Below are positions 24,558 through 58,720 of a stretch of 58,798 nt of DNA, one piece after another; the stretch's first letter is position 1, and every line of letters begins with the position of its first letter. The DNA is taken from NCBI GenBank assembly GCA_035299125.1, contig DATGXA010000350.1, forward strand, positions 1-58,798, in the 5' to 3' direction. A program made the translations under genes and the position numbers. The notes under the pieces were generated by a model, which searched no databases, was not told where the DNA came from, and was given only the letters and a program-made list of their open reading frames with translations. This DNA comes from Opitutaceae bacterium. Lineage in GTDB: Bacteria > Verrucomicrobiota > Verrucomicrobiia > Opitutales > Opitutaceae.

Positions 24558-24619
24558 TCCGGTTTCCGCCCCCTTGGATGCACCGCCTCCGCGGTGCATC
24601 AGTCTCTTTTCCTCCTACC

Positions 24620-25180: not shown

Positions 25181-25207
25181 TCGCCCGTCCTCTTTTCTCC
25201 GCGCTCG

Positions 25208-25603: not shown

Positions 25604-25649
25604 TCCCGGTCCCGTTTTCCTGTCCGACGCCCAACCCCTTCCTTTCCTG

Positions 25650-27185: not shown

Positions 27186-27231
27186 AGCGCGCCGCGCCCC
27201 GCCGCTTCGCCAACGCCGAACTATCCTTACC

Positions 27232-28107: not shown

Positions 28108-28132
28108 GCCGCGCCACGCCCACCGTTTTTAG

Positions 28133-29575
<1,443 letters not shown>

Positions 29576-33596: not shown

Positions 33597-33664
33597 GACC
33601 TCCCCGCGCCGAGGTTTGCCGCCTGCGGTCCCGTGCGGCACATTGTCGCCGGAAACACCCCTCC

Positions 33665-34798: not shown

Positions 34799-35793
34799 TA
34801 TTCACGAACCCACTCGACGAGCTGGCGCAGGCCCTCCTCGAGCGGCGTCTTCGGCGCGTAGCCTACGGCGGCCTGGATGCGCGAGAGATCGGCGCAGGTT
34901 TCCGGCATCTCGGTGGGCTGGGGCGGGAGCAGCTCGACCTTGGCCTTCTTGCCGAGGAGCGACTCGAGCATCTGCACGAAGAGCAGCATCTCGACCGGGC
35001 GGTTGTTGCCGATGTTGAAGACATCGTACGGCGCGGCGGGCGGCTTCGCCTCGGCTCCCGGTTCGACCGCGGGCGCCGGCGGGCGAGGGGAGTGCGTGAG
35101 CTTCAGGACGCCGGAGACGATGTCGTCGACGAACGTGAAGTCGCGGCGGTATTTGCCGTAGTTCCAGAGCTTGATCGTCTCGCCGGCGAGGATGGCGCGG
35201 GCGAACATGATCGGGCTCATGTCGGGCCGGCCCCACGGGCCGTAGACGGTGAAGAACCGCAGGCCGGTGCAGCGCAGGCCATGCACGTGGGCGTAGCTGT
35301 ACGCCATGTGCTCGTTGGCGCGCTTGGTGGCGGCGTAGAAGGAGAGTGGCTCGCTCACGGCATCCTCGCGGAAGGGCGTGGGTACGCCGGCGCCGTAGAC
35401 GCTCGACGAGGAGGCGAACACGAGGTGCTTCGGCGGGTGGCGGCGCGCGGCCTCGAGAATGTTGCCGAAACCGACGAGGTTGCTGTGCACGTAGGCCTCG
35501 GGATGGGTGAGGCTGTAGCGCACGCCGGCTTGGGCGCCGAGGTGGATGATGTAGTCGGGCTTGAAGCTGGCGACGAGCGAGTGCAACGCAGGCGCGTCGG
35601 CGAAATCGGTTTGGACGAAACGGAAGCCCTCGCGGCCCTCGAGCCGGGCGAGGCGGGCGCGCTTGAGGGCGACCGAGTAGTAGTCGTTGACGTTGTCGAT
35701 GCCGAGCACCTCGGGTTGACCGGGCGAGGCGAGTAGGCGGTGGCAGACGTGCGAGCCGACAAACCCGGCCGCGCCGGTCACGAGTAGCTTCAT
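34768..35793 (-). CDS. NAD-dependent nucleotide-sugar epimerase (UDP-glucuronate 4-epimerase-like SDR)
   Basis: 'MKLLVTGAAGFVGSH' Rossmann motif, 'YAATKRANE' (YxxxK) and 'RFFTVYGPWGRPDM'. Confidence 0.9.
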   Translation of the reverse strand: MKLLVTGAAGFVGSHVCHRLLASPGQPEVLGIDNVNDYYSVALKRARLARLEGREGFRFVQTDFADAPALHSLVASFKPDYIIHLGAQAGVRYSLTHPEAYVHSNLVGFGNILEAARRHPPKHLVFASSSSVYGAGVPTPFREDAVSEPLSFYAATKRANEHMAYSYAHVHGLRCTGLRFFTVYGPWGRPDMSPIMFARAILAGETIKLWNYGKYRRDFTFVDDIVSGVLKLTHSPRPPAPAVEPGAEAKPPAAPYDVFNIGNNRPVEMLLFVQMLESLLGKKAKVELLPPQPTEMPETCADLSRIQAAVGYAPKTPLEEGLRQLVEWVREYYGPTGAEPA

Positions 35794-42649: not shown

Positions 42650-42697
42650 AGCAGCCCGGGCCTCGCGCCCGACAGTCTCTGGTTTCGTTTTCCAACG

Positions 42698-42733
42698 ACG
42701 GCCGCGGCTCCCACCGCGGCCGTTCTGTTTCTC
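42698..42733 (+). terminator. Intrinsic terminator after gltD
   Basis: ACGGCCGCGG-ctccca-CCGCGGCCGT (10-bp stem) followed by TCTGTTTCTC. Confidence 0.7.
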
Positions 42734-42824: not shown

Positions 42825-43571
42825 ATGCTCCGCGCTCTCCGCGTCGTCGTCCTCCTCCTGATCGGCCTCCCCGTCGCCCTCGGTGAAGTCGCTCCCGCCG
42901 CGCTCTCCCACCTGCTGCGCGCCCGCGCCGAACTCGGCGATTCACACTGGTCCGCGATCCTCCGCCTCGCCGGCAACGACCCCGCCCGGCCCGCCGACAC
43001 CGCCCTCGTCTTCGAGTTCGCCAACGCCCTCTGGTTCTATCGTCCGCTCGACGGCACGCAGAGCCTCTCCCGCCACTGGAACAACGTCGCCGCCGAGCGT
43101 CGCGATCTCCTCCCGCTCCTCCAGCGCATCGACGCCGACTACACCAGCTTCAGCGAATACGACCCCGTCGCGCTCGCGGCCGGCGCCCCCAGCACCGGCG
43201 AACTCCCCAACGGCTGCTTCATCCAGAGCGTCGCCGAAGCCCGCCGCCTCGAGCGCGAAGCCGCCATCACCGACGGCTGCCTGCTCTCGTACTACGCCGA
43301 CACCGCCGAGGGCCTGCGCGGCCACACCGTATTGGTCTATCATGACGCCAACGGCTCGCATGTCTTCGATCCCGCCGAGGGTCGCACCACCGACACCCCG
43401 AAGACTTCGCTCTACGACGAGGCGCTCAACCTCGCCCGCCGCATCACACCCTTCGCGCTCGCCACCCGGCTCACCAAGGCCGCAAAGATCACGCTCTTCA
43501 AACGCGACGGCGACACCGCACCGCACAAGGCCTCCGCGCGCTCAAGCAACCGTCGCCCGGTGCTCCGCTGA
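42825..43571 (+). CDS. Secreted hypothetical protein with a possible Cys/His/Asp (transglutaminase/papain-like) triad
   Basis: Start set at ATG 42825 (MLRALRVVVLLLIGLPVALGE is a signal peptide). 'PNGCFIQSVAEARRL...GHTVLVYHDANGSHVFDP'. I recognise no family with confidence. Confidence 0.6.
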   Translation: MLRALRVVVLLLIGLPVALGEVAPAALSHLLRARAELGDSHWSAILRLAGNDPARPADTALVFEFANALWFYRPLDGTQSLSRHWNNVAAERRDLLPLLQRIDADYTSFSEYDPVALAAGAPSTGELPNGCFIQSVAEARRLEREAAITDGCLLSYYADTAEGLRGHTVLVYHDANGSHVFDPAEGRTTDTPKTSLYDEALNLARRITPFALATRLTKAAKITLFKRDGDTAPHKASARSSNRRPVLR

Positions 43572-43809: not shown

Positions 43810-46800
43810 ATGTCCATCCCCTCAATCTCGACCTATTCGCGCCAGGCGATCGCGAATCTGACCACCACCGAGCTGCAGGGCCTCACGTCGACGGAGTTCG
43901 CTTCGTTGCTCGCCTCGCAGATCAAGTCGCTCACTACCACCCAGGTCGAGAGCCTCACCGAGACCGCGCTCGCCGCGATGACGGCGACCCAGATCAAGGC
44001 GCTCAGCGCCGCGCAGGCCACCGCGCTCACGTCGAGCCAACTCATCGTCTTCAGCGCGACCCAGTTCTCCACCTTCAGCTCGGCGCAGCTCGCCGGTATG
44101 TTGCCCGCCGAGATCGCCGCGCTCACCACGACCCAGCTCGCCGGCCTCGCCGCCAATGATTTCGGCGAACTCTCCGCCGCGCAGGCGGCCGCTCTCACGA
44201 CCGAGCAACTGGCTGTCCTCACCCGGTCGCAGTTTTCCGGTTTCAGCGGCGCAAGCCTCGGCAGCTTCACCACGACACAGCTGCAATCGCTCGCACCCAC
44301 GCAGTTCGCCAACCTCAGCACCACCGCCCTCAGGGGCCTCAAGGCCACGCAAATCACCGAGCTCACGCCCGAACAGCTCGGCGTCCTCACCGCCACGCAA
44401 CTCGGCGCACTCGCCGCCGCGACCGTGGGCGCACTCACCGGCGAGCAGGTGGCCGCGCTCACCACCACCCAGCTCGGCGGCCTCCTGCCCACGCAACTCG
44501 CCGCGCTCGGCGCGCCGCAGCTCGAGGCGTTGGGCGCCACACAGCTCGCTTCGTTCGACATCGCGCAGCTGCGCAATCTCACCTCCACCGCGCTCAGCCT
44601 GCTCACCGCCACGCAACTCGCCGCGCTTTCCGACACGCAGCTCGCCGCCCTGGCCACGACTCAGCTCAGAGGGCTCACCGCGACCGATGTCGCCGAGCTC
44701 ACGCTCACGCAACTCGCCGCCCTCACCGACACGCAACTCGCCGCCCTCTCGCTCACCGCGCTCTCCGGCCTCACGACCACCCAGATCGCCGCGCTCTCCG
44801 TCTCGGAACTCTCCCATCTCAGCGCTTGGGCGGTCGGCTCGTTCTCCGCGGCCCAGATCGCCGCGCTCTCCCCGACGCAACTCGCCGGTCTCGCGACCAC
44901 CCAGGTGCGCAACCTCTCCTGGAGCTTCATCGCAGCGTTGTCGGCCAACCAATTCGCCGCGCTCGGCACCGCCCAGATCGCCGCGCTTTCCACCGCGACC
45001 ATCAAAGGCCTCGAGATCACCACGCTCGCCGCGCTTTCCGCCTCCCAGCTGCGGGCCCTCACCTCGTACCAACTCGCCGCGCTTTCCTCCACGCAGGTCG
45101 CTTCGCTCTCCACCACGCAGCTCGGCGTGCTCACCCCCACTCAGCTCGCGACCTTCACGAGCACCGACATCGCCGCGCTCGCCACCACCCAACTGGCCGC
45201 GCTCTCGGGCACGCAGTTCGCCGCCCTCTCCATCTCCGCCATCAAAGGCCTCTCCGGCTCCCACCTCGCCGCATTGACCGAGACGCAGTTTGCCGCCCTC
45301 ACGAGCACCCAGGCCGCCGCGCTCACCACCACCCAGGCGGACCAGCTCAGCACCACGCAATTTGCCGCGCTCACCACCACCCAGCTCCGCGCGCTCAACG
45401 CCGCCGTGCTCGGCTCGCTCGCCGACGAACAGATCGCCCTCCTCACCACCACGCAGATCGCCGCCCTCTCGCCCGCCCAGCTCGGCCGTTTCACGCCCAC
45501 CAGCCTCGCCGCCTTCACCACCACACAGATCGCGGCGTTCTCGGCCGCGCAGTTGGCCGGGCTCTCCGCCGCGGCGTTCACCGGTCTCGCGGAGACCCAG
45601 ATCGCCAGCCTCGCACCGTCGCAGCTCGGCGCGCTCTCCTCGAATCACCTCAAGGCACTTTCAAGCACGCAGATCTCGCAGTTCAGCCCCGCGCAACTCG
45701 CCGCTCTCTCCGCCGCCCAGTTGCGCGGCCTCACCGCGTCAAACGTAAGCGCGCTTGAGGCCACCCAACTCGCCGCGTTCTCCGCCGAGCAGATCGCCGG
45801 CATCACCGTCACCCAGATCCAAGGGCTCAACAGCACCGATCTCGGCGAGTTCACCACCACGCAACTCGCCGCTCTCACCACCACCCAGTTCGCCGCCCTG
45901 CGCACCGCCATCGTCGCCGGTCTCACCACCACCCAGATCGCCGCGCTCTCCACCACCCAGCTGAACGCCCTCGCCGGGCGCACCTTCGGCTTCCTCACCG
46001 AGACCCAGCTCGCCGCCCTCTCCGCCACTCAGCTCGCCGCGCTCACCACCACCAAGCTCCGCAACCTCACCACCACCCAAGCCGCCGCGCTCGACGTCAC
46101 CCAGCTCGCCCGTTTCTCCAGCACCCAGCTCGGCGCCATCGCCCCCGCCGCTTTCGCCAGCCTCGGGGAAACGCAGATGGCCGGTCTCACCACCACCCAA
46201 CTCCGCGGCCTCACCACGGCCCAGATCGCGGCGCTCAGCACCACCGGCGTCGATGCCCTCGGCGCCATGCAACTCGTCGCGCTCTCCACCACCCAGATCG
46301 CCGCCCTCGGCGCCACCCACCTCGGCTCGCTCACCGACACGCAGCTCGCCGCCTTCACCACCACTCAAATCGCCGCCCTTTCCACCGCCGCGATCAAAGG
46401 CCTCACCGAAGCCCAACTCACCGCGCTCGACGCCGCCCACCTCGCGGCGCTCACCTCGACCGCGCTCTCCGGCCTCACCGCCACCCAGCTCGCACAGCTC
46501 CCCGTCGCGCAGCTCCTCGCCCTCGCCACCCACCAGCTCCGCGGCTTCACCAGCGCGCAACTCGCCGCCCTCAACGAGACCCAGCTCGCCGCGCTCGCCT
46601 CCACGCAACTTTCCGCCCTCGCGAGCACCCAGCTCCGCGGCCTCACCGCCACCGCGCTCACCCAGCTCACCACCGCGCAACTCCAGGCGTTGACTTCCGC
46701 CCAGCTCGCCGGCTTCGCCACCACCGCGATCCCCGGGCTCACCGAGGAGCAGCTCGCCACCCTCTCCATCACCCAGCTCCGCGGCCTCACCAGCACCCAG

Positions 46801-49800
46801 CTCGCCGCTCTCACCACCACCCAAGCCGGCCACCTTGCCGAGACGCAGCTCGCCGCCCTCTCCACCACCCAACTCCGCGGCCTCTCGAGCACCGCCGCCA
46901 GCGCGCTCACATCGACGCAGCTCGCCGCCCTCAGCTCCACCCAGCTCGCCGCGCTCACCACCGCGCAACTCGCCGGCCTCACCAGTACCGACATCAACGA
47001 GCTCAGCCTCACCGAACTCGCCGCGTTCGCCTCCACTCAGCTCGCCGCCCTCTCCACCGGCGCTCTCGCCGGTTTCACGACCACGCAGCTCGCCGCCCTC
47101 TCCACCACCCAGCTGAAGGGCTTCACCGCCGCGCAGCTCGCTGCGTTCTCCGCCGACCAACTCGACACGTTCGCCACCTCGCAACTGGCCGCCCTCACCA
47201 CCACCCAGCTCGGCGGCCTTTCCGCCACCCAGCTCGGCGAACTCTCGCTCACCCAACTCGCCGTCCTCTCTCCCGCCCAGTTCGGCGCGCTTTCCTCCGC
47301 CGCCGTGCGCGGCCTCGCGGAAACGCAGCTCGCCGCTCTCACGCTCACGCAACTCGACGGCCTCACCGCCACCCAGTTCGCCGCCCTTTCCGCCACCCAG
47401 ATCGGCCAGCTCGCGAGCACCCAGCTCGCCTCGCTCTCCATCACCCAGCTCAAAGGCCTCACCGCCACCGGCCTCGCCGCCCTCGGCACCACGCTGCTCG
47501 AAGCACTCTCCTCCACCCAGCTCGCCGCCCTGCCGGCCACCGCGATCACCGGTCTCACCGAGGAACAGCTCGCCGCTCTCTCGACGACGCAGTTCGCCGT
47601 CCTCACCTCCACCGAACTCGCCGCGCTCACCGCCACCCAGATCGGCCTCCTCAGCGCCACCCAACTCGCCGCCCTTTCCACCCTGCAAATCCGCGGCTTC
47701 ACCGCCACCCAGCTCGCCGCACTCTCCGAAACGCAGCTCGCGACCTTCGCCACCACCCAGATCGCCGCCCTCTCCACCACCCAGGTCGCCGGCCTCAACC
47801 ACACCGAACTCGCCGCCCTGAGCCCCGCGCAACTCGCCGCGCTCTCCTCACTCCAGCTCGGCGCGCTCGCCACCGGCGCCGTCTCCGGTCTCACCACCGC
47901 GCAATTCGCGTCGCTCTCCGTCACCCAGCTCGCCGGTTTCTCCAGCACGCAACTCGGCGCCCTCACGACGACCCAAGTGAGCGAGCTCTCCGTCACCCAG
48001 CTCTCCGCCCTTTCCGCCCACCAACTCCGCGGCCTCACCAGCACCGGCGTGAGCACGCTCACCTCCGCGCAGTTCGCCGCGTTGAGCACCACGCAGCTCG
48101 CCGCACTCACCACCGCACAGATCCAAGGCCTCACCGCCGCCGACACCGCCGAGCTCAGCCTCACCGAACTCGCCCGTCTCACCTCCACCCAGCTCGCCGC
48201 CCTCACCACCACCGCGCTCTCCGGCCTCGACACCACCCAACTCGCCGCCCTCGCCACCACCCAGGTCGCCGCCTTCGTCGCCGCGCAACTTGCCGCGTTT
48301 TCCACCGCGCAGTTCGCCGCGTTGAGCACCACGCAGCTCGCCGCCCTTTCCACCTCCGGCGTCGCCGGCCTCACCTCGACCAATCTCGCCGGGCTCGACG
48401 CCACCCAACTCGGCGCGCTCTCCGCCGCGCAGCTCGGCGCCCTCGCCACGACCGCGCTCTCCGGCCTCACCATCACCCAACTCGGCGAACTCTCGACCAC
48501 GCGCCTCAACGCCCTCCGGCCCACCCAGCTCGCCGCACTCGCCACCACGCAGCTCGCCGCCTTCAGCACGACTCAGTTCGCCGCCCTCTCCACCACCAAC
48601 CTCGCCGGCCTCGTCGACACCCAGCTCGCCGCTCTCTCGCTCGACCAACTCGCCGCACTCTCCACGCGCCAGCTCGCCGCTCTCTCCGCCACCGGCATCG
48701 ACGGCCTCACGACCGACGCCGTCGCCGCCCTCTCCGCCACCCAGCTCGCCGCGCTCACCACCGCACAACTCGCCGGCCTCACCGCCGCCCAATTGCGCGC
48801 GTTCACGACCACGCAACTCGCCGCGCTCTCCGCCGTCCAACTCCACGGCCTCCCTGCGACCCAGCTCGCCGCCTTCGCCGCCGAGCAGATCGCCACGTTC
48901 TCCACCGCGCAACTCGCCGAACTCTCCAGCACCGCACTCGGCGGCTTCACCGCCGCGCAGCTCGCCGCGCTCTCACCCGACCAGCTCGCCGCGTTCGCCT
49001 CCACGCAGCTCGCCGCACTCTCCAACACCGCGTTGGCCGGGTTCACCGCCACCACGCTCGCCGGCCTCACCACCCGCCAGCTCGCCGCGCTTTCGAGCAA
49101 CCAACTCGCCGCGCTCTCCACCGGCCAGCTCGCACAGCTCGCCGCCACCCAAGTCGCCGCGCTCTCCACCACCGGCGTCACCGGCCTCACCGAGACGCAG
49201 CTCGGCGCCTTCAACGCCACCCAGCTCGCCGCACTCACCGCCGCGCAATTCGCGCACCTCACCGCCACCGCCCTCGAAGGTCTGAGCGGGGCCGACATGG
49301 CGGCGCTTTCCGTGACCCAACTCCGGGCGCTCAGCGCCACCAGCCTCGCCGCCCTCGGGTCCCACCAGCTCGCCGGCCTCGCTGCCACTCAGGTAGCTTC
49401 GCTCACCACCACACAGCTCGCCGCCCTCGCGCCCGACGCCCTCACCGGTCTCGCCGTCGAGGATTTCGCCGCGCTCTCCCACACCCAGCTCACCGCGTTC
49501 ACTGCCGCGCAGTTCGGCGCGTTCACCGAAACACAGGTCGCCGCCCTCGCGCCCACGCAGATCGCCGCGCTCTCCGCCACCCAACTCGCCGGCCTCGACA
49601 GCACGCAGGTGGCCGCGCTCTCCGCCACCCAGCTCGCCCAGCTTTCGCCCGAACAACTCACGCTGCTCTCGCTCGCCGGCCTCGACGGCTTCACACCCGC
49701 CAAGATCGCCGCACTCTCCACCGCACAGCTCGGGGCGCTCACCGCCGCGCACCTCGCCAGCCTCGCCGCCACCCAAGTCGCGGCCCTCACCGCGACCCAG

Positions 49801-52638
49801 CTTGCCGCGCTCACGACCACGCAGCTCAACCAGCTTTCGGAGACGGGCCTCGCAGCATTCACCGCCGCCCAGATCGCCACGCTCTCCACGACTCAGGTCG
49901 CCGGCCTTTCCACCATCCAATTCGCCGGCCTCACCTCGACCGAGGTCGCCGCGCTCGGCGCCACGCAACTCGCCGCACTCTCCACCCGCCAGCTCGCCGC
50001 CCTCGACACCACCGCAGTGGTCGGTCTCGGCGCCACGAGCTTCGCCGCACTCTCGGCCACGCAGCTCGCCGCATTCACCTCCACCCAGTTCGGCGCGCTC
50101 ACCAACGCGCAACTCGCCGCGTTCGACACCACGCAGCTCGCCACCTTCTCCGCCACCGAATTGCGCGGCCTCACCGAAACCCAGGCCGCCGCCTTCTCCA
50201 CCACGCAGCTCGCCGCGTTGTCAGCCACGCAGTTCGCCGCGCTCTCCACCCTCGCGATCGCCGGCCTCACCGCCACGCAACTTGCCGCCCTTTCCACCAC
50301 GCAAGTGAAGGGCCTCGCCGTCACCGGCCTCGCTGCGCTCACCACCCGCCAACTCGACGCCCTCAGCGGCACCCAGCTCGCCGCGCTCTCCACCACGCAG
50401 CTTCGCGGACTAACGAGCACCCAGATCGGCGCGCTCGGCGCCCCACAACTCGCCGCGTTGGCCACGACGCACATCGCCGCGCTCGCCGCCACCCAGCTGC
50501 AAGGTCTCTCGAGCACCGGCGTCGCCGCCCTCGCGCCCACGCAGCTCGCCACGCTCTCCGCCGCTCAGATCGCCGCGCTCTCCACGACCGGCATGGCCGG
50601 GCTCACCACCACCGAACTCTCGGCCCTCTCCACGCGCCAACTCGCGTCGTTCACCGCCACGCAGATCGGCGCCTTCTCCGCCGAACAACTCGCCACCCTC
50701 ACCACCACCCAGGTGCGCGTGCTCACCGCCGCCGAGATCGGCGGCCTCACCTCGACCCAGGTCGCGGGCCTCTCCGCCGCGCAACTCGCCGCCTTCTCCA
50801 CCACGCAGCTCGCCGCCCTCTCCGCCACCGGCGTCAAGGGCCTCACCGCCACGCAGCTCGCCGCCTTCACCGGCACCCAGCTCGGCGCCCTAACCGCAGC
50901 CGAGTTCGCCGCCCTCACCACCACTCAGGTCGCAAATCTCGCCACGACTCAGCTCGCCGCGCTCACCTCAACCCAACTCCGCGGCCTGACCACCACCGGG
51001 CTCGGCGCGCTCTCCGCCGAACAATTCGCCGCGCTCTCCACCACGCAGCTCGCGAACCTGTCGCTCGCGCAATTCCAGGGGCTCACGAGTTCCGCCATCG
51101 CCGCACTGTCCACGACCCAACTCGCAGCGCTCTCGACGACCCAGCTGGCCAACCTCTCGACCACCGCCGTCACCGGCCTCGCCGCGAGCGATTTCGCGGC
51201 GCTCACCGCGCGCCAGCTCGGCGCGTTCACCGCCACGCAGCTCGGCGCGCTCACAACCACGCAGGTTGCCGCGCTCGACGCCGAGCTGCTCGCCGCGTTC
51301 ACCACCACGCAGGTGCGCGGCCTCGCCGACACGCAGGTCGGCGCGTTCTCCACGACCCAGCTCGCCTCTCTCTCCACCGCGCAGCTCGCTTCACTCTCCA
51401 CCGGCGGCGCCTCCGGCCTCACCGCCACCCAACTCGCTTCGCTCAGCACCACGCAGCTCGGCGCCCTCGCCGCCACCGAGATCGAAGCGCTCGCCACCAC
51501 TGCGCTCGCCGGCCTCTCGGCCACCACGCTCGCCGCGCTCACCACAACGCAGCTCGCCAGCCTCGCCGCCACCGGTCTCGCCGCGCTCACGACCACGCAG
51601 CTCGCCAGCCTCGGCACCGCCCAGCTCGAGGCGCTCTCCGCCACCGGTCTCGCCGGCCTCACCTCGCGCCAAGTCTCCGCACTCTCCGCCACGCAGCTCG
51701 CCACGCTCGGCGCCAACCAACTCGCCTCGCTTTCCACCACCGGCCTGCGCGGTCTCACCGCCGCCCAGCTCGCCACGCTCACGACCGCGCAGCTCGTCGC
51801 GCTCGGCGCCGAAGGTGCGGCCGCGCTCTCCGCCACCGCCGTATCCGGACTCTCCACCACGCAGCTCGCCGCCCTCACCACCGCGCAATTCGCCAGCCTC
51901 TCGGCCGAGGGCATCTCCGGTCTCGGCACCGCGCAGTTCGCCGGCCTCAGCGCCACCCAGCTCGGCATGCTCAACGCCACCGAGCTCGGCGGTCTCACGG
52001 CCGCGCAGCTCGCCGCCCTCTCTGCGGCCAAGTTCGAGACGTTCTCCACCGCGCAGCTCGCCGCCCTCTCGACCTCCGCGATCTCCGGCCTCACCGCCGC
52101 CCAGCTCGCCGCCCTCGACGAGACCCGCCTCGACGTCCTCACCTCGACTCAGCTCGCCGCCCTCACCACGACCCAGATCGGCCAGCTCTCGACGACGCAG
52201 ATCACCGATCTCTCCACCACGCAGATCGCCGGCCTCGTGCGCCCGCAACTCCGCGCGCTCAATGCCGAGCAGTTTGCCGCGCTCGCCCCCGCGCAGATCG
52301 CGGCCCTCGGCGGCGCGCAATTCGCAAACCTCACCGCCACCGAACTCCGCGCCCTCAGCCCCGCCCAGCTAGGCGCCGTCACCGCGGCGCAGCTCGGCGC
52401 GCTCGCCGGCCCGCAGTTCGGCGCCTTCAGCACCACGCAGTTCGACCAGCTCGCCGCCACCCAGCTCACCGAGCTCACCACAACCACGATCCAGGCGCTC
52501 GAAACGACGACCGTCGCCGCCCTCACCGTGCACCTGATCGAGTCGCTCACCGCCACACAGCTCGCCGCCCTCACCGGCGAACAGCTTGCGCTGTTCTCGC
52601 CCGCCCAGCTCGCCGCCTACCAAAGCGCGCGCGTCTGA
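43810..52638 (+). CDS. Giant (2,942 aa) octapeptide-repeat protein, consensus L-[ST]-[TSA]-[TA]-Q-[LIFV]-[AG]-[AG]
   Basis: A single uninterrupted 8,829-nt ORF, by far the longest of the six frames here. Codon choice (ctc/gcc/acc/cag) matches the neighbouring genes. It has no N-terminal signal peptide (MSIPSISTYSRQAIANL...). Confidence 0.8.
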   Translation: MSIPSISTYSRQAIANLTTTELQGLTSTEFASLLASQIKSLTTTQVESLTETALAAMTATQIKALSAAQATALTSSQLIVFSATQFSTFSSAQLAGMLPAEIAALTTTQLAGLAANDFGELSAAQAAALTTEQLAVLTRSQFSGFSGASLGSFTTTQLQSLAPTQFANLSTTALRGLKATQITELTPEQLGVLTATQLGALAAATVGALTGEQVAALTTTQLGGLLPTQLAALGAPQLEALGATQLASFDIAQLRNLTSTALSLLTATQLAALSDTQLAALATTQLRGLTATDVAELTLTQLAALTDTQLAALSLTALSGLTTTQIAALSVSELSHLSAWAVGSFSAAQIAALSPTQLAGLATTQVRNLSWSFIAALSANQFAALGTAQIAALSTATIKGLEITTLAALSASQLRALTSYQLAALSSTQVASLSTTQLGVLTPTQLATFTSTDIAALATTQLAALSGTQFAALSISAIKGLSGSHLAALTETQFAALTSTQAAALTTTQADQLSTTQFAALTTTQLRALNAAVLGSLADEQIALLTTTQIAALSPAQLGRFTPTSLAAFTTTQIAAFSAAQLAGLSAAAFTGLAETQIASLAPSQLGALSSNHLKALSSTQISQFSPAQLAALSAAQLRGLTASNVSALEATQLAAFSAEQIAGITVTQIQGLNSTDLGEFTTTQLAALTTTQFAALRTAIVAGLTTTQIAALSTTQLNALAGRTFGFLTETQLAALSATQLAALTTTKLRNLTTTQAAALDVTQLARFSSTQLGAIAPAAFASLGETQMAGLTTTQLRGLTTAQIAALSTTGVDALGAMQLVALSTTQIAALGATHLGSLTDTQLAAFTTTQIAALSTAAIKGLTEAQLTALDAAHLAALTSTALSGLTATQLAQLPVAQLLALATHQLRGFTSAQLAALNETQLAALASTQLSALASTQLRGLTATALTQLTTAQLQALTSAQLAGFATTAIPGLTEEQLATLSITQLRGLTSTQLAALTTTQAGHLAETQLAALSTTQLRGLSSTAASALTSTQLAALSSTQLAALTTAQLAGLTSTDINELSLTELAAFASTQLAALSTGALAGFTTTQLAALSTTQLKGFTAAQLAAFSADQLDTFATSQLAALTTTQLGGLSATQLGELSLTQLAVLSPAQFGALSSAAVRGLAETQLAALTLTQLDGLTATQFAALSATQIGQLASTQLASLSITQLKGLTATGLAALGTTLLEALSSTQLAALPATAITGLTEEQLAALSTTQFAVLTSTELAALTATQIGLLSATQLAALSTLQIRGFTATQLAALSETQLATFATTQIAALSTTQVAGLNHTELAALSPAQLAALSSLQLGALATGAVSGLTTAQFASLSVTQLAGFSSTQLGALTTTQVSELSVTQLSALSAHQLRGLTSTGVSTLTSAQFAALSTTQLAALTTAQIQGLTAADTAELSLTELARLTSTQLAALTTTALSGLDTTQLAALATTQVAAFVAAQLAAFSTAQFAALSTTQLAALSTSGVAGLTSTNLAGLDATQLGALSAAQLGALATTALSGLTITQLGELSTTRLNALRPTQLAALATTQLAAFSTTQFAALSTTNLAGLVDTQLAALSLDQLAALSTRQLAALSATGIDGLTTDAVAALSATQLAALTTAQLAGLTAAQLRAFTTTQLAALSAVQLHGLPATQLAAFAAEQIATFSTAQLAELSSTALGGFTAAQLAALSPDQLAAFASTQLAALSNTALAGFTATTLAGLTTRQLAALSSNQLAALSTGQLAQLAATQVAALSTTGVTGLTETQLGAFNATQLAALTAAQFAHLTATALEGLSGADMAALSVTQLRALSATSLAALGSHQLAGLAATQVASLTTTQLAALAPDALTGLAVEDFAALSHTQLTAFTAAQFGAFTETQVAALAPTQIAALSATQLAGLDSTQVAALSATQLAQLSPEQLTLLSLAGLDGFTPAKIAALSTAQLGALTAAHLASLAATQVAALTATQLAALTTTQLNQLSETGLAAFTAAQIATLSTTQVAGLSTIQFAGLTSTEVAALGATQLAALSTRQLAALDTTAVVGLGATSFAALSATQLAAFTSTQFGALTNAQLAAFDTTQLATFSATELRGLTETQAAAFSTTQLAALSATQFAALSTLAIAGLTATQLAALSTTQVKGLAVTGLAALTTRQLDALSGTQLAALSTTQLRGLTSTQIGALGAPQLAALATTHIAALAATQLQGLSSTGVAALAPTQLATLSAAQIAALSTTGMAGLTTTELSALSTRQLASFTATQIGAFSAEQLATLTTTQVRVLTAAEIGGLTSTQVAGLSAAQLAAFSTTQLAALSATGVKGLTATQLAAFTGTQLGALTAAEFAALTTTQVANLATTQLAALTSTQLRGLTTTGLGALSAEQFAALSTTQLANLSLAQFQGLTSSAIAALSTTQLAALSTTQLANLSTTAVTGLAASDFAALTARQLGAFTATQLGALTTTQVAALDAELLAAFTTTQVRGLADTQVGAFSTTQLASLSTAQLASLSTGGASGLTATQLASLSTTQLGALAATEIEALATTALAGLSATTLAALTTTQLASLAATGLAALTTTQLASLGTAQLEALSATGLAGLTSRQVSALSATQLATLGANQLASLSTTGLRGLTAAQLATLTTAQLVALGAEGAAALSATAVSGLSTTQLAALTTAQFASLSAEGISGLGTAQFAGLSATQLGMLNATELGGLTAAQLAALSAAKFETFSTAQLAALSTSAISGLTAAQLAALDETRLDVLTSTQLAALTTTQIGQLSTTQITDLSTTQIAGLVRPQLRALNAEQFAALAPAQIAALGGAQFANLTATELRALSPAQLGAVTAAQLGALAGPQFGAFSTTQFDQLAATQLTELTTTTIQALETTTVAALTVHLIESLTATQLAALTGEQLALFSPAQLAAYQSARV
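43858..52620 (+). repeat. 24-bp-periodic coding tandem repeat array (about 365 units)
   Basis: The period-8 amino-acid pattern stays in the same register at residues 17, 2385 and 2937 (all 1 mod 8). There are local higher-order duplications, for example an exact 40-nt match between 48065-48104 and 48305-48344 (offset 240 nt, 10 octads). Confidence 0.9.
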
Positions 52639-52694
52639 GAAACGTGTCTCCGTTTTCCTGAGCCAGCCCGGCCGCCGCGCGCCCACCTTCCGCC

Positions 52695-54707
52695 ATGTCG
52701 CCCGTTCCACCGCCCTCCGATCCCCTCCAGTCGATGGCCCCCGGCTTCAGCGTCACCGAGCTCATCCGCACCGCCGAGACGCTCAAGCAGACCGGCCAGA
52801 CCGCCGCCATCGAGCCGCTCTACGCCACCTGGATCGCGCGCAACTCCACGCACCCGCTGCTCTACGCCGTTCTCTTCAACTACTCCGTCACGCTCTCCGA
52901 CGCCGGCAAACTCGACGCCGCCCGCACCGCCCTCGAGCGCGCCCTCGCGCTCAACGCCGACTTCATGCCCGCCCACATCAACCTCGGGCGGCTCTACGAG
53001 CGTCTCGGCATGGTCGGCCTCGCCCTCGTCCAGTGGTCCGCCGTCAGCACCAAACTCGCCGCCGTCAACGGCTCCGCCATCGCGCACAAGACGATGGCGC
53101 TCAACCAAAGCGCGCGCGCCCTCGAGGCCGCCGCCCAAGACGAGCCCGCCGAGGATCTCCTCCGCCAGAGCCTCGAGATCGACCCGCGCCAGCACGAGGT
53201 CGCGCAACACTTCCTCGCCCTCCGCCAGCGCCAGTGCAAATGGCCCGTCGTCGTTCCCTGGGAACGCGTCGATCGAGAGACGCTCCTGCGCGGCATGTCG
53301 CCGCTCTCGCTCGCCGCCTACACCGACGACCCGCTGCTCCAGCTCGCCGCCGCCGCGCACTACAACCGCACCGAGATCGGCGCTCCCGCCTCGCCGCTGC
53401 CCGCGCTCGATCGCGCTCGTGCCGGTGGCGAGCGCCTGCGCATCGGTTACGTCTGCTCCGATTTCCGCGCCCACGCGCTCGGCTACCTCCTCACCGAGGT
53501 GCTCGGCCTCCACGACCGCGCGCGCGTCGAGGTCTTCGCCTATTACTGCGGCCCCGAGGCCAACGACCCGCTCCACGCGCAGTTCCAGGCCACCGCCGAT
53601 CACTGGCTGCCCATCACCGCGCTCGACGATGCCGCCGCCGCCGCGCGCATCGCGGCCGACGGCATCCAGATCCTCGTCGATCTCAACGGCTACACCCGTG
53701 ACGCCCGCGTGAAACTCTTCGCGCTGCGCCCCGCGCCGGTCCTCGTCAACTGGCTCGGCTACCCGGGCACCATGGCGAGCCCGTATCACCACTACGTCAT
53801 CGCCGACGACTGGATCGTCCCGCCCGAGCACGAGCAGTACTTCTCCGAACGCGTGCTCCGCCTCCCGTGCTACCAGCCCAGCGCACGCACCCGCGCCGTC
53901 GCGCCCGAGCCACCCACCCGCGCCGCCGCCGGCCTGCCCGAGGACGCGGTCGTCTACTGCTGCTTCAACGGCGCGCACAAGATCACCCGTTTCACATTCG
54001 ACCGTTGGCTCTCCATCCTCGAACGCGTGCCGCGCAGCGTGCTCTGGCTGCTCGGCAGCTCCGACGCCGCGCAGGACCGCCTCCGCGAACACACCACGCG
54101 CCGCGGCCTCGACCCGCAACGCCTCGTCTTCGCCCCCAAGCTCGCCAACCCGCACCACCTCGCGCGCTACCCGCTCGCCGATCTCTTCCTCGACACCACG
54201 CCCTACGGCGCGCACACGACCGCCTCCGACGCGCTCTGGATGGGCGTGCCCGTGCTCACGCTCAGCGGCCGCTCCTTCGCCTCGCGCGTCTGCGGCAGCC
54301 TCGTGCGCGCCGCCGGCCTGCCCGAACTCGCCTGCACCAGCGCGCTCGCCTTTCTCGCCACCGCGGTCGACCTCGGCCTGCATCCGGAAAAACTCCGCGC
54401 GCTCCGCGCCCGCCTCGCCGCGAACCGCGACACCTGCGTCCTCTTCGACATGCCGCAGCTCGTCGCCCGCCTCGAGGATCTCTACGCCGAGATGTGGGCC
54501 GATCTGGAAGCCGGCCGCCTCCCACAGCCCGATCTCGCCAACCTCGACGTTTACCTCGAGGTCGGCGCGCCGCTCGACCACGAGGAGATCGAAGTGCAGG
54601 CGATCGACGATTACCACGAGTTCTGGCGCGAACGCCTCCTGCGCCGCCACGCCCACCGCCCGATCCCGACCGACCGCCGCCTGATCGACGCCCCACGCTT
54701 CGGCTGA
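52695..54707 (+). CDS. TPR-repeat + GT41-family glycosyltransferase (O-GlcNAc transferase / SPINDLY-like)
   Basis: N-terminal TPR-like helices ('ALERALALNADFMPAHINLGRLYERLG'). The C-terminal GT41 pattern is 'LRIGYVCSDFRAHALGYL', 'ILVDLNGYTRDARVKLFALRPAPVLVNWLGYPGTM', 'VVYCCFNGAHKIT' and 'DLFLDTTPYGAHTTASDALWMGVPVLTLSG'. No signal peptide. Confidence 0.88.
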   Translation: MSPVPPPSDPLQSMAPGFSVTELIRTAETLKQTGQTAAIEPLYATWIARNSTHPLLYAVLFNYSVTLSDAGKLDAARTALERALALNADFMPAHINLGRLYERLGMVGLALVQWSAVSTKLAAVNGSAIAHKTMALNQSARALEAAAQDEPAEDLLRQSLEIDPRQHEVAQHFLALRQRQCKWPVVVPWERVDRETLLRGMSPLSLAAYTDDPLLQLAAAAHYNRTEIGAPASPLPALDRARAGGERLRIGYVCSDFRAHALGYLLTEVLGLHDRARVEVFAYYCGPEANDPLHAQFQATADHWLPITALDDAAAAARIAADGIQILVDLNGYTRDARVKLFALRPAPVLVNWLGYPGTMASPYHHYVIADDWIVPPEHEQYFSERVLRLPCYQPSARTRAVAPEPPTRAAAGLPEDAVVYCCFNGAHKITRFTFDRWLSILERVPRSVLWLLGSSDAAQDRLREHTTRRGLDPQRLVFAPKLANPHHLARYPLADLFLDTTPYGAHTTASDALWMGVPVLTLSGRSFASRVCGSLVRAAGLPELACTSALAFLATAVDLGLHPEKLRALRARLAANRDTCVLFDMPQLVARLEDLYAEMWADLEAGRLPQPDLANLDVYLEVGAPLDHEEIEVQAIDDYHEFWRERLLRRHAHRPIPTDRRLIDAPRFG

Positions 54708-54724
54708 TCCGGATGGTTCACACG

Positions 54725-54739
54725 TGGCGAAAATCGCCA
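54725..54739 (+). terminator. Weak hairpin after the GT41 gene
   Basis: TGGCGA-aaa-TCGCCA, 18 nt after the stop. The downstream U-tract is poor (aaggctttcg). Confidence 0.3.
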
Positions 54740-55436
54740 AGGCTTTCGACCCGGCCGAGCGCAGATCGAAACTCTCGCGAATTTCGTTACAGCGCCTCGT
54801 TTCCACCTCCATCGGAAGTGTGAAACTTGCGGGCTGACGTCCCGCCCGCCACCGCTCCCCGGCATCATCTCCCCCACATCGCGTCCCTCCCGCCCCCGGG
54901 GGCAACATGTCAACTATTGGTTGACGCAGCCATGCGCCCGCATCCGAGCGCGACCCGGCGCGCGCCCTCGGTCGCACCGCTCGTTGCAGCGCGCCACCCG
55001 CCAGCAGTGGCACCATCGGCGCATCCCGCTTGGTCGGATGCGCCGTCCGCGGGCAACGACCACGCCAGCCAACGCAGTTCGCACAGTGGCTGCAGCGAAG
55101 GCCGGAGCGCTCAAGGAGCTCGGACCCGAGGCATCGGAAAGCCACTCGCCTTCGGGTGCGTGCCTCGAGGCACGCCTCCACGACGCAATTCTCCGTGATC
55201 TCCTTCCCGCTCCCTTTCGATTCTGTGACCTGCCTGCATTGCCGTTCCCAAGCCGGATCGCTGCATCGGACCCGGCGACGTGCCGAAAATCCCTAAGAAA
55301 TCCGCGGCTCGCGTGTCTTCATCGGGTGGAGCCTCCACGGCTCCGATTCCCGTTGCCCATGCGCGCCCCGGCCATCGCCCAAGTTTTCTCGCCACCCTCC
55401 AGTATTTCCGGTCTGGTGGCGCGATCAACCCCGCGC

Positions 55437-55943
55437 ATGGATCCGGAGCCACCCACCTTGGCTGCGTTGTTCGAAGAAGAGGAATCCGGCCTGCTGCGCT
55501 ACGCGCTCGGGCTCACGGGTCGCCGGCCCGTCGCCGAGGAGCTGGTGCAGGAGGCGTTTCTCCGTCTCCACCAGTCCTGGGCCGAGGTGGAAAACCCGCG
55601 CGCCTGGCTCTACCGCACCGTCCGCAACCTCGCGCTCAACCACCTCCGCGACCACCCGCTCGAGACCGAGCTCGCCGCCGACACCGCATCGACCAACGAC
55701 CGCTCCGCCGCCGAGCGCCTCGGCCGGGACGAAGCCGTCGGCACCGTGCGGCTCCTCCTCGCCGAGCTCCCCGCAGACGACCGCCGCCTCATCCACCTCA
55801 AGTACCACGAGGAGCTTCAGTATCAGGAGATCGGACGCCGCACCGGCCTCACCTCCGGCAACGTCGGCTATCGTCTGCACCACCTCCTCAAAACGCTGGC
55901 CGATGGTCTCCGCCGCGCCGGCATCGAAGGAAGCGAGGGCTGA
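55437..55943 (+). CDS. ECF (sigma-70 family group IV) sigma factor
   Basis: Start set at ATG 55437. Region 2 'LLRYALGLTGRRPVAEELVQEAFLRL...NPRAWLYRTVRNLALNHLR'. Region 4 'LPADDRRLIHLKYHEELQYQEIGRRTGLTSGNVGYRLHHLLKTL'. Confidence 0.88.
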   Translation: MDPEPPTLAALFEEEESGLLRYALGLTGRRPVAEELVQEAFLRLHQSWAEVENPRAWLYRTVRNLALNHLRDHPLETELAADTASTNDRSAAERLGRDEAVGTVRLLLAELPADDRRLIHLKYHEELQYQEIGRRTGLTSGNVGYRLHHLLKTLADGLRRAGIEGSEG

Positions 55944-55945
55944 AC

Positions 55946-58720
55946 ATGACACAGGAAAACACGCCGCCCGCCCCGCACCGCCCCACCGACACCGAGCTCG
56001 AGGAACGCATCGTCGCCTGGGTTCTCGGCGAAGCCTCCGCGTTCGAGATCGCCGCGCTGGAAGCGGTGGTCGCCGCCCGTCCCGAATTCGCCGTCTTCAA
56101 ACGCCGCATCGAGGCCGTCCACGGCCTCGTCGCCGCAGCCGCGCGCGAGAATGCCGCTCCGCTCCGCCTCTCTCCTGATCGCCGCGCCAGACTCCTTGCC
56201 GTGATCGGCTCCGCCCCTGCAGTAGCCGGGGGCGCCGCCCCCGGCAAAACCGCCGCGCAATCCAAGTCCGCCGCCCCCACCAAACCCTCCGTCGTGCGCC
56301 TGCCACGACCGCCCGAGCGCCCGTGGTGGCGCAACGAGTGGTTCTACTCCGCCGCCGCCTGCGTGGTCATCAGCATCGGTGGCTTCTGGATGCTCGGCAC
56401 CGTCTCTCCGAACAAACCGCAGAGACCAGATCCGGATGCCATGCTCGAGTGCATTCAACCTTCAGCTGAAGAAGAAGCGCCAGACAGTTTCCCGGAGCCA
56501 CCGGGCGACGTCCCGCACTTCGAACTCACAGTACCGACGAGGAGCATGGCACCGATTGCTGCGAACTATTCGTGGTCTGCTCCGAAAGCCGCAACAGCGC
56601 CACGAGTCGCGCCGAAACCGAACCTCGTGTTCGGCACGTTCGGTACGACGGATCTCGACAGGAAAAAGGAGGTGGTGGTCAGTGGTTTCTCCCAGTTCTC
56701 CGAACAGACCGGTGAATCCGATGCTTCCAGCGCCGCCGGTTACGCCAGTAAGACTGTCGCCGAATCGAGCGGGGTGCTGGATAAGTTCGAAGTCAATGAA
56801 ACGGAGTCCCGCGGTTACACGGCGACTAATACGCTCGGAGGCACACGTCTTCGCACCGAACTCAAGGACATCAGCTCGTCGATATCGGTCGTCACGAAGC
56901 AGTTCATGAAAGACGTCGGGGCGACCAATAAAGAGTCGGTGCTCGGCTACAGCGGAAATGCTGAAGTCGGCGGTCTAGAAGGAAATTTCGCGGGGAAACC
57001 CGCCGCCCCCCGCGACAACTTCCTCTCCAAGCGCAAGACCGAGCGCATCGGTGGAAAGGGTGGGGCGCCGGCTCCGGCCGCGCCTGCGGTCGGCGGCGAA
57101 GCGGAGGAAGTCGTGGTGCTCTCGCCGTTCTCTGTCGCGAGCTCGCAGGACTCCGGCTACCTCCGGAGCAATCGCGCACCGAAGCTGCCGAAGCGTCCGG
57201 CCCCCTCCGCGACCACCGCCGGCATGGGCCCCGGCGGACTTCAACCAACCGACGTCGATCTCAATCTCCAAGCAGCCGCGTCCACCACGTCCACGCCGTC
57301 CACTCAGTCCACTCCTTTCGCCCTCGCCGAGTCCGCCACCGACCACCCTCTCCCGCGCCCCGCCCAAAAGCTCGCCGCCCCACCGCCCTCCACCGACGAA
57401 ACCAGCGCCGCGCATGAGCCCGTCTCCACGTTCTCCCTCCACGTGAGCGACGCCTCGTTCAAGCTCGCGCTGACCGCGCTCGCCGCCGGCCGCCTGCCCG
57501 ACGCCGCTTCGATCCGCCCCGAGGAATTCTACAACGCCTTCGACTACGGCGATCCCGCGCCCGGCGCCGGCGAAAAAGTCTCCTGCCGCCTCGAGCAGGC
57601 CGCGCATCCGTTCGCGCAGCAGCGCAACCTCGTGCGCATCGCCGTGCGCGTGCCGGCCACCGGCCGCGGCTCCGGCACGCCGCTCAACCTCACCGTCCTC
57701 CTCGACACCTCCGGTTCGATGGAGCGGCCCGACCGCCGCGCCGCAGTGCGCGCCGCGCTCCGCACGCTCGTCGGCCTGCTCGGCCCCGCCGACCGCCTGA
57801 CGCTCGTCGGGTTCGCGCGCCAACCGCGCCTGCTCGCCGAGGCGTTGGATGGCAACCACGCCAACCAAGCGCTCGATTTCCTCGACCGCACTCCCGCCGA
57901 GGGCGGCACGAACCTCGAGGAGGCGCTCAAGCTCGGTGGCGAGCTCGCCCGCCGCCATTTCGCCGAGGCCGCGCAGAACCGCATCGTCCTCCTCACCGAC
58001 GGCGCCGCCAACCTCGGCAACGCCGACCCCGAGCGCCTTGCCGCCGCCATCGAGACGCTGCGGAGCCAGCGCATCGCGTTCGACGCGTGCGGCGTCGGCC
58101 TCGAGGGCGTCGACGACGACATGCTCGAGGCGCTCACCCGCAAGGGCGACGGCCGCTACTACGTGCTCGATTCGCCCGAGGCGGCCGACGCCGGCTTCGC
58201 CCGCCAGCTCGCCGGCGCGTTTCGCCCCGCCGCCGAGAACGTGAAACTCCAGGTGCGTTTCAACCCCGCGCGCGTCGGCCGCTACCGGCTCGTCGGCTTC
58301 GAGAAACACCGCCTGCGCGAGGAGGATTTCCGCAACGACGCCGTCGATGCCGCCGAACTCGCCGCCGAGGAGGCCGCGGTCGCGCTCTACGAGGTCGAGG
58401 TGTTGCCGCAGGGCGAGGGCGAGGTCGCCGAAGTGCTGGTCCGCTTCCGCGACACCGGTTCGAAGGAGATGGTCGAGCGCGGCTGGACGGTGCCCTACGA
58501 GCCGCGCGCCGCGGCGTTCGACCGCGCCTCGTCGAGTCTCCAGCTCGCGGGCACAGCGGCCGCGCTCGCCGAGAAACTCCGCGGCGGCGCCGCCGGCGAC
58601 CGCGTCGATCTCGATGCCCTCGCGCCGTTCGTCGCCGCCCAACGCGCCCGCCGTCCCGACGACAAGCGGCTCCAGGAGCTCGCGACGTTGTTCGAGCAAC
58701 TCCGGAGGATGAAGCGATGA
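55946..58720 (+). CDS. Anti-sigma-like N-terminus + TM + TonB-receptor-plug-like segment + vWA/YfbK-like domain fusion protein
   Basis: The start at ATG 55946 lies 3 nt after the sigma gene stop. N-terminal 'EERIVAWVLGEASAFEIAALEAVVAARPEF', TM segment 'WFYSAAACVVISIGGFWMLGTV', MIDAS 'VLLDTSGSMERPDR...GGTNLEEAL...IVLLTDGAANLG', then 'VRFNPARVGRYRLVGFEKHRL' (DUF3520-like). Confidence 0.8.
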   Translation: MTQENTPPAPHRPTDTELEERIVAWVLGEASAFEIAALEAVVAARPEFAVFKRRIEAVHGLVAAAARENAAPLRLSPDRRARLLAVIGSAPAVAGGAAPGKTAAQSKSAAPTKPSVVRLPRPPERPWWRNEWFYSAAACVVISIGGFWMLGTVSPNKPQRPDPDAMLECIQPSAEEEAPDSFPEPPGDVPHFELTVPTRSMAPIAANYSWSAPKAATAPRVAPKPNLVFGTFGTTDLDRKKEVVVSGFSQFSEQTGESDASSAAGYASKTVAESSGVLDKFEVNETESRGYTATNTLGGTRLRTELKDISSSISVVTKQFMKDVGATNKESVLGYSGNAEVGGLEGNFAGKPAAPRDNFLSKRKTERIGGKGGAPAPAAPAVGGEAEEVVVLSPFSVASSQDSGYLRSNRAPKLPKRPAPSATTAGMGPGGLQPTDVDLNLQAAASTTSTPSTQSTPFALAESATDHPLPRPAQKLAAPPPSTDETSAAHEPVSTFSLHVSDASFKLALTALAAGRLPDAASIRPEEFYNAFDYGDPAPGAGEKVSCRLEQAAHPFAQQRNLVRIAVRVPATGRGSGTPLNLTVLLDTSGSMERPDRRAAVRAALRTLVGLLGPADRLTLVGFARQPRLLAEALDGNHANQALDFLDRTPAEGGTNLEEALKLGGELARRHFAEAAQNRIVLLTDGAANLGNADPERLAAAIETLRSQRIAFDACGVGLEGVDDDMLEALTRKGDGRYYVLDSPEAADAGFARQLAGAFRPAAENVKLQVRFNPARVGRYRLVGFEKHRLREEDFRNDAVDAAELAAEEAAVALYEVEVLPQGEGEVAEVLVRFRDTGSKEMVERGWTVPYEPRAAAFDRASSSLQLAGTAAALAEKLRGGAAGDRVDLDALAPFVAAQRARRPDDKRLQELATLFEQLRRMKR

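Follow-up and report, generated by a model that had tools for sequence, protein, structure and literature searches.

The window analysed here is the whole contig DATGXA010000350.1 (58,798 bp) of a metagenome-assembled genome (MAG) of Opitutaceae (Verrucomicrobiota). It carries a gene for a protein of 2,942 amino acids that is built of ALTTAQ-type octapeptides (octads) from the first methionine to the stop codon, followed on the same strand by a gene for a glycosyltransferase of family GT41 with tetratricopeptide repeats (TPR). This pair of genes recurs in distant bacterial lineages, and the ALTTAQ proteins that belong to it are enriched in Ser and Thr at two positions of the octad. The repeat chain is predicted to fold as an alpha-helical screw, and the mechanism that we favour, with confidence evenly balanced, is that it would form a heavily O-glycosylated, secreted rod or fibre. 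The features on which the analysis rests are the following.

43810..52638, + strand: gene of the ALTTAQ-type octad protein, ATG start, 2,942 aa, 291.8 kDa, isoelectric point (pI) 4.62 (open reading frame (ORF) and translation, PF20080 match, homologues).
43810..43857, + strand: N-terminal 16 residues, MSIPSISTYSRQAIAN, two degenerate octads without a signal peptide (translation, N-termini of 34 full-length homologues).
43858..52617, + strand: 365 canonical octads in a single register, consensus L-S/T-T-T-Q-L-A-A (position statistics, phase tracking, AlphaFold2, match to PDB entry 9ZEM).
52618..52638, + strand: C-terminal tail YQSARV and stop codon (C-termini of homologues).
52695..54707, + strand: OGT-like glycosyltransferase with TPR and GT41 domains, 670 aa, without a signal peptide (PF13844, TPR hits, PDB matches, conserved gene pair).

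The octads were counted from residue 1 and their positions numbered 0 to 7. Position 0 was L or F in 97% of the octads, position 1 S or T in 74% (D or N in a further 5%), position 3 T in 61%, position 4 Q in 70% and position 5 L, I, V or F in 96%, and positions 6 and 7 were chiefly A or G. The self-identity of the protein was about 0.39-0.45 at lag 8 and its multiples, compared to 0.06-0.14 at the remaining lags, and in 366 of the 367 octads positions 0 and 5 were both hydrophobic, compared to at most 71 in 1,000 shuffles. An earlier note, made from the letters of this DNA alone, had described the whole ORF as a tiling of octapeptides, and these values agree with that description; its strict octad pattern, with both hydrophobic positions widened to L/F/M/I/V, was found in 109 octads. 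The sliding phase tracker gave one phase over 363 of 363 windows, and thus no indel anywhere in the array, which goes beyond the earlier claim of no net indel over 8.8 kb. Ser and Thr together amount to 771 residues (26% of the protein), Cys is absent, and the motifs GGxGxD, typical of RTX (repeats-in-toxin) proteins, and LPxTG were each counted zero times, as the same note had read. Pro was found at position 2 in 23 of 367 octads, with Thr, Ala or Ser in its place in the others. Gly at position 7 was spaced mostly by 4 octads (32 aa), sometimes by 2 or 6, which gives a loose super-repeat of 32 residues.

The homologues linked to GT41, with lengths between 1,058 and over 3,314 aa, consist of repeats from start to stop. 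Their common N-terminus, M-S-I-S-S-L-S-x-x-Q-I-A-x-L-S, has its counterpart MSIPSISTYSRQAIANLT in the window protein, whose translation showed neither a signal peptide nor a hydrophobic leader, in line with the first description. Their C-termini carry a similar, loosely conserved short tail rich in Tyr, Ala and hydrophobic residues. The single register is also preserved in homologues longer than 3,300 aa (L008, L009, L005 and L007), and likewise in most of the others. A few slip periodically: L037 gains one residue per 30 octads, the register shifts every 13-16 octads in L072, L022 and L077, and L070 also loses the single register. Such slips suggest recently amplified higher-order units, each with one irregular repeat.

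Searches against Pfam revealed that the protein matches PF20080 (ALTTAQ_rpt) with 1058 bits (E = 0; gathering threshold 26.4 bits) in 112 stretches that cover it, far above the threshold and with the same octad motif A-L-T-T-A-Q. By its sequence, it is therefore a PF20080 member without any other domain. This overturned the earlier statement that the octads could not be assigned to a known repeat family. The earlier note had been prepared to yield to a confident match with a family of known fold; the described family was found, and the fold was not, as PF20080 is without a solved natural structure. The kinship that had been proposed with the LTXXQ motif of CpxP/Spy was discarded, as Pfam gave no match to that family up to E = 10 and the five-residue motif is a coincidence. 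The NCBIfam scan of the protein returned no family, and literature searches on ALTTAQ and PF20080 found nothing relevant.

A word-indexed search of 5.8 billion proteins revealed ALTTAQ arrays in other giant proteins, together with two-partner secretion (TPS), ESPR, RTX, immunoglobulin-like (Ig-like), Calx-beta, FG-GAP or DUF4347 modules, architectures that are characteristic of secreted adhesins. Most of the other members found thus carry secretion or adhesin domains, whereas the window protein has octads alone from end to end. In 1.84 billion representatives, an exhaustive profile search gave 4,905, 2,057 and 561 hits at E <= 1e-3, 1e-10 and 1e-30, respectively. Neither search returned the window protein or its GT41-linked homologues, which scored 2,300-3,400 bits locally with the same profile, compared to 991 bits for the best library hit, and both counts therefore underestimate the family. 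The exact repeat protein is also absent from a collection of 15 billion proteins, in which the GT41 neighbour is present; a look-up of contigs encoding the GT41 protein found nothing, although the cluster table holds it.

The best sequence match in the PDB was the designed protein HeliScrew4 (9ZEM), with E 1.3e-11 for one slice of the protein and 2.4e-26 for the repeat profile. HeliScrew4 is a protein of 120 aa that represents a new fold, the alpha-helical screw, obtained from random 8-mer repeats and solved as a crystal structure at 2.2 A, with an apolar core and S/T/D/N N-caps; its designers found one natural example in the PDB (7QLR), termed the fold "dark matter" and asked for the reason of its rarity in nature (bioRxiv 10.64898/2025.12.04.691947). 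The UniProt accession of 7QLR is A0A487D782 according to the CCP4 paper, and the 60 best matches of the repeat profile that were listed, of 98 at E <= 1, did not include the entry. The window protein and the design share an 8-residue unit (L-T-P-E-Q-I-A-A, for example, in the design) with one short helix per unit, predicted in the natural protein, an S/T/D/N N-cap and the same two apolar core positions. The frequent helix-initiating Pro at N1 is the feature of the design that was not found in the window protein (23 of 367 octads). The design has a charged surface, with Pro at N1, whereas the natural protein, of 2,942 aa, is nearly uncharged and has Thr, Ser or Ala where the design has Pro-Glu/Asp. 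The resemblance is convergent, not homologous. The screw is a tight clockwise superhelix with 2.5-4 units per turn, and for the window protein the sequence match to 9ZEM and the Gly spacing of 4 octads bear on this geometry.

AlphaFold2 modelling of a slice of 40 octads (320 aa), with an alignment built from other slices of the same protein, gave exactly 40 helices of 4-6 residues joined by linkers of 2-4 residues, with a mean predicted local distance difference test (pLDDT) score of 93.3 and a predicted template modelling (pTM) score of 0.81. A slice of 15 octads (120 aa) gave 15 helices in the same pattern, with pLDDT 90.8. The models and the 9ZEM match make it very probable that the protein folds as a continuous alpha-helical screw of tiny N-capped helices, and they bear out the suggestion of the earlier note that very short capped helices build up a solenoid, as AlphaFold2 gives each octad one helix and 9ZEM has the same logic of N-caps and apolar core. 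Each octad would form one short alpha-helix, in which Ser/Thr at position 1 would serve as N-cap and Gln at position 4 would complete the capping box, while Leu at position 0 and Leu, Ile, Val or Phe at position 5 would pack as a continuous apolar core. The 366 octads would wind into one uninterrupted screw, a thin stiff rod that might measure, as a rough guess, several tens of nanometres. The register may have been kept over 8.8 kb because an indel would break such a superhelix.

Of the slice modelling and the structure comparison that the earlier note had proposed, the first gave the short-helix model at high pLDDT, and the second, Foldseek against the PDB, gave a weak match to mesothelin only. 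This match (8CX3) was the best for the 120-aa model, with a query-normalised template modelling (TM) score of 0.61 over 121 columns, a root-mean-square deviation of 4.4 A, E 0.03 and 14% identity, and its TM score dropped to about 0.3 for the 320-aa model. Mesothelin is a superhelix, a solenoid of short helices as well, and it differs in having longer, irregular, ARM-like repeats. A faint Pfam Mesothelin hit was also seen on an ALTTAQ protein designated P0004.

The main functional clue is the adjacent TPR-GT41 gene, which had been overlooked in the earlier note. It starts 57 bp 3' of the repeat gene on the same strand. Its product matched PF13844 with 281.9 bits (9.9e-84, cut-off 25), and the TPR hits were at or slightly under their cut-offs. 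The PDB matches were XcOGT (2.8e-87), human OGT (about 6e-81), SPINDLY (5e-51) and, weakly, HMW1C (4e-5). The protein aligns with XcOGT (XCC0866, PDB 2JLB) over residues 72-586, and the alignment showed that His218, Lys388 and the HTT...D donor motif of XcOGT are retained. By its domain and conserved residues, the neighbour is therefore a GT41, OGT-like enzyme.

The GT41 protein was searched against 185,579 species-representative genomes, which gave 80 loci with 47-68% identity, mostly in Alphaproteobacteria (Caulobacterales, Rhodospirillales, Hyphomonadaceae, Acetobacteraceae) and also in Magnetococcales and a few MAGs labelled otherwise. The Opitutaceae copy is closest to those of Proteobacteria. 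Cultured bacteria with the cassette are Asticcacaulis sp. YBE204 (L012), Insolitispirillum peregrinum CCUG 13795 (L005), Siculibacillus lacustris SA-279 (L007), Roseomonas sp. HF4 (L068, with ABC and HlyD genes) and Methylobacterium carpenticola (L058). ALTTAQ ORFs at these loci were detected with a hidden Markov model of the window's repeats. A giant ALTTAQ ORF ends just 5' of the GT41 gene on the same strand in 65 of the 80 loci, mostly with a gap of 17-370 bp. Any ALTTAQ ORF was found in 71 of the 80 loci, and within 10 kb in 71 of the 77 informative ones, as three of the nine loci without such an ORF have almost no upstream sequence. Clustering of the flanking ORFs revealed no third universally conserved gene, and only lineage-specific genes for ABC (ATP-binding cassette) transporters and HlyD proteins and several ORF clusters without Pfam match were seen. 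No description of a GT41-ALTTAQ pairing was found in a literature search on bacterial GT41, operon and repeat.

The octads of the GT41-linked proteins differ from those of other ALTTAQ proteins in their fraction of Ser/Thr.

GT41-linked ALTTAQ proteins (12,630 octads): 0.76 at position 3 and 0.55 at position 2.
Window protein: 0.65 at position 3 and 0.46 at position 2.
ALTTAQ proteins of TPS, RTX and other types: 0.20-0.34 at position 3 and 0.15-0.43 at position 2.

The window protein is thus richer in Thr at positions 2 and 3 than other PF20080 members, and it falls in the GT41-linked subfamily. The N-cap position was alike in all ALTTAQ classes (Ser/Thr 0.62-0.74), which fits a structural role. 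Position 3 often bears a charge in the other classes, and the consensus at position 2 is Pro in the TPS type (LSPAQLAA) and in an ALTTAQ protein designated P0017. Because Pro and Glu/Asp stand at these two positions in the water-soluble HeliScrew design, positions 2 and 3 of the octad are likely to face the solvent. Their enrichment in Ser/Thr fits, as indirect evidence and with P0017 as an exception, the use of the hydroxyl groups by the linked GT41.

The repeat protein is probably the substrate of its GT41 neighbour, judging from gene order and composition. The cytoplasmic TPR-GT41 would O-glycosylate Thr and Ser in the first helical turn, at octad positions 2 and 3, probably before the chain folds, and yield a mucin-like rod with a coat of sugars. 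Comparable pairs are known from Haemophilus influenzae, where the adhesin HMW1A occurs with HMW1C, a GT41 enzyme, and HMW1B, and from Gram-positive bacteria, where serine-rich repeat adhesins occur with GtfAB. As in these systems, a huge repetitive protein adjoins a dedicated cytoplasmic transferase and, in part of the family, an exporter. The window enzyme differs from HMW1C (PMC3012730) in being of the OGT/XcOGT type with TPRs (2.8e-87 versus 4e-5 for the HMW1C type), its proposed substrate is a predicted helical screw and not a beta-helix as in HMW1A, and the exporter linked to the family is of type I, not two-partner or accessory Sec.

Export is suggested by the genomic context of the homologues. 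An ABC transporter gene (PF00664 and PF00005, about 730-780 aa) and an HlyD-family gene were found directly upstream of the ALTTAQ-GT41 pair in at least nine loci (L017, L018, L042, L045, L061, L064, L065, L068 and L075); this number is a lower bound, as in many other loci the giant gene takes up all of the flank that was fetched. The window protein itself has no N-terminal leader, a pI of 4.62 and no Cys. Since signal peptide and Cys are absent, the protein is acidic and operons of the family include an ABC transporter and a membrane fusion protein, a type I system would be its most likely route, and the protein may serve as a surface fibre, an adhesin or a matrix component. Because the tails of the homologues are alike and type I secretion genes adjoin some of them, the tail YQSARV may belong to a type I secretion signal that stays uncleaved at the C-terminus. 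For the window protein in particular, we give export about even odds.

Several observations weigh against a glycosylated, secreted screw rod. P0017, which is flanked by six tandem GT41 genes, has Ser/Thr at position 3 in a fraction of just 0.13. In Xanthomonas, the gene of XcOGT, the enzyme with the closest structure, follows hemA and prfA (hemA-prfA-OGT) and has no ALTTAQ gene in its neighbourhood, and the Verrucomicrobiota giant P0004 has no GT41 gene within 10 kb. OGT-type enzymes modify peptides in extended form, in which this highly foldable chain would somehow have to be kept. Type I secretion genes were not found in the 58.8-kb contig, although they could lie elsewhere in the genome, and many homologous loci were without them within the fetched flank; the window protein also lacks the RTX repeats that large type I substrates usually have. 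Finally, with the 320-aa and 120-aa models as queries, neither 9ZEM nor 7QLR was among the PDB entries that Foldseek returned. Because XcOGT and P0004 are unpaired, the pairing belongs to one branch of GT41 and one subfamily of ALTTAQ, and the ALTTAQ-linked enzymes form a branch separate from that of XcOGT, which has no ALTTAQ gene nearby.

The Xanthomonas context was read after the XcOGT sequence had been rebuilt from the alignment and its Xanthomonas cluster found, and XcOGT was rejected as an ALTTAQ partner. The Xanthomonas campestris gene (L084:8919-11707) overlaps the end of prfA, which encodes release factor 1, a context that might suggest a partner in translation and not an adhesin. For the terms looked up in it, the EMBO 2008 paper on XcOGT does not mention native substrates. 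At the P0017 locus (L081:1-9531 and 18812-28745), the six tandem TPR-GT41 paralogues are divergent, and two giant ORFs of 1,428 and 3,179 aa without Pfam hit lie downstream of P0017, the latter running off the end of the locus.

One alternative is that GT41 does not glycosylate the rod, which would instead be a partner or regulator binding the TPRs, or that the two share a third component, for example a polysaccharide or a further protein, as their target. This reading gains from P0017, which is not Thr-rich at position 3 in spite of its six GT41 neighbours and whose two flanking giant ORFs could be the real targets. It is nevertheless unlikely, as it leaves aside the tight same-strand adjacency in distant lineages and the extra Ser/Thr at positions 2 and 3, which is specific to the GT41-linked subfamily; moreover, pairs of an adhesin and a dedicated transferase have the precedents of HMW1A/HMW1C and the serine-rich repeat proteins with GtfAB.

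Similarly low is the probability that the same fold, modified by GT41, acts within the cell or the envelope as a scaffold or cytoskeleton-like rod whose assembly is tuned by glycosylation. The lack of a signal peptide and of secretion genes, in the window as in many homologous loci, would agree with such a rod, and GT41/OGT enzymes are cytoplasmic and classically modify intracellular proteins. The nine homologous operons of the order ABC-HlyD-ALTTAQ-GT41 argue for the secreted rod instead, as do the ALTTAQ arrays in secreted giants of the TPS, RTX and Ig types and a Cys-free, acidic composition that fits type I substrates.

It is improbable that the periodic Thr/Ser/Ala surface is itself functional, in binding ice, minerals or polysaccharides, so that no glycan is needed. 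A nearly uncharged, hydroxyl-rich surface on a strictly periodic scaffold would suit such a role, and ice-binding proteins typically display Thr in arrays on a solenoid; however, Pfam, NCBIfam and Foldseek revealed no similarity to known ice-binding families, and the conserved GT41 partner would be left unexplained.

We consider it just as doubtful that the array is a divergent leucine-rich repeat (LRR) protein, in which three octads would make one repeat of 24 residues and the chain a beta/alpha solenoid. This possibility arose because Pfam LRR_EndoS matched the protein above its cut-off (80.8 bits) and the repeat profile matched LRR proteins in the PDB, down to E 3e-12. These values are far below those of ALTTAQ (1058 bits) and 9ZEM (2.4e-26), neither AlphaFold2 model contains a strand at pLDDT above 90, no LxL or Asn-ladder motif is present, and all eight positions have period 8 and not 24. 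The LRR matches are what a Leu spacing of 8 residues alone gives against repeats of 24 residues, and the LRR assignment was rejected.

The DNA sequence of the array was compared unit by unit as well. The mean identity between units was 60% at the nucleotide level and 41% at the amino acid level, the longest exact DNA repeat within the gene was 40 bp, with no 41-mer recurring, and octads with identical peptides differ in their codons. An independent contig from SRR5823601 matched positions 51817-56115 of the window with 99.5% identity, and the last 822 nt of the repeat gene were 100% identical; this contig ends inside the array, so that the full array length is supported by one assembly. The array is old and correctly assembled. 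The diverged nucleotide copies with synonymous codon variation that had been noted earlier were thus found, and the unbroken phase together with the unit divergence supports the view that the array is old and its register under selection. It is hardly credible that the ORF arose by faulty assembly or is a runaway repeat without function: the source is a MAG contig and the exact protein is missing from the 15-billion-protein collection, but no 41-mer recurs, identical units vary in synonymous codons, an independent assembly reproduces the 3' end exactly, and over 70 genomes have such ORFs intact, with lengths between 1,058 and more than 3,314 aa.

The remainder of the window is ordinary chromosome, with urease accessory and nitrogen genes, mnmE-mnmG, the atp operon and gltBD. 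The AtpD encoded there shares 98% identity with the AtpD of an Opitutaceae MAG. Two hairpins were recorded around the repeat gene.

42697..42724, + strand: strong terminator-like hairpin of 11 pairs (9 G-C) after gltD, which separates the cassette from the glutamate synthase operon.
52629..52647, + strand: weak hairpin and T-run overlapping the stop codon of the repeat gene, not significant compared to shuffles (5 terminator-like sites versus 4.4 expected).

The hairpin at the stop codon might reduce read-through to the GT41 gene. An ORF of 248 aa (42825-43571, +), located between gltD and the repeat gene, starts with a hydrophobic leader (MLRALRVVVLLLIGLPVALG...) and contains motifs with Cys...His...Asp (NGCF, GHTVLVYHD); Pfam gave no match for it, and its place beside the cassette is not conserved in other genomes. 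Directly 3' of the GT41 gene, the region 54921-58720 (+) contains a gene for an ECF (extracytoplasmic function) sigma factor, at about 55437-55943 by comparison with the independent contig L086, and then one for a large VWA/YfbK_C protein; this order was also found in L086 and not in the alphaproteobacterial loci. Upstream of gltB lie genes for a protein with TPR and a transglutaminase core (32789-34798, +) and for an NAD-dependent sugar epimerase/dehydratase (34768-35793, -), which could supply a nucleotide sugar and is not linked to the cassette in other genomes. The GC skew of positions 16000-24000 is positive before about 20 kb and negative after it, and, judged from this skew, the genes around 20 kb appear to be divergently oriented. 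At 18-24 kb, where mnmE-mnmG and the start of the atp operon lie, the GC content falls to about 0.61.

The ALTTAQ family itself was already in Pfam; what is new is its match to the alpha-helical screw architecture, the recognition of a domain-free, Thr-rich subfamily tied to an OGT-like GT41, and the link of this subfamily to type I secretion. The subfamily may represent an unrecognised class of mucin-like bacterial fibres, that is, screw rods of 130 to more than 400 octads that would be heavily O-glycosylated on their surface Thr/Ser by a dedicated GT41 and exported by type I systems, a proposal that we put forward tentatively, as somewhat less than an even prospect. If it is true, the bacterial OGT homologues of the ALTTAQ-linked branch would gain a defined native substrate, and a fold that was called almost absent from nature in 2025 would be in use at megadalton scale. 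The window protein and the ALTTAQ family suggest that nature uses the alpha-helical screw in arrays of hundreds of units, and that the screw appears without the Pro that the HeliScrew designers thought important. The pairing with an OGT-like GT41 nominates a concrete class of substrates for one branch of bacterial enzymes. As the length of the rod would be set by the number of octads and its surface by two positions per octad, it makes an attractive natural scaffold, and it may be an unnoticed component of the cell surface in Alphaproteobacteria, Magnetococcales and Verrucomicrobiota.

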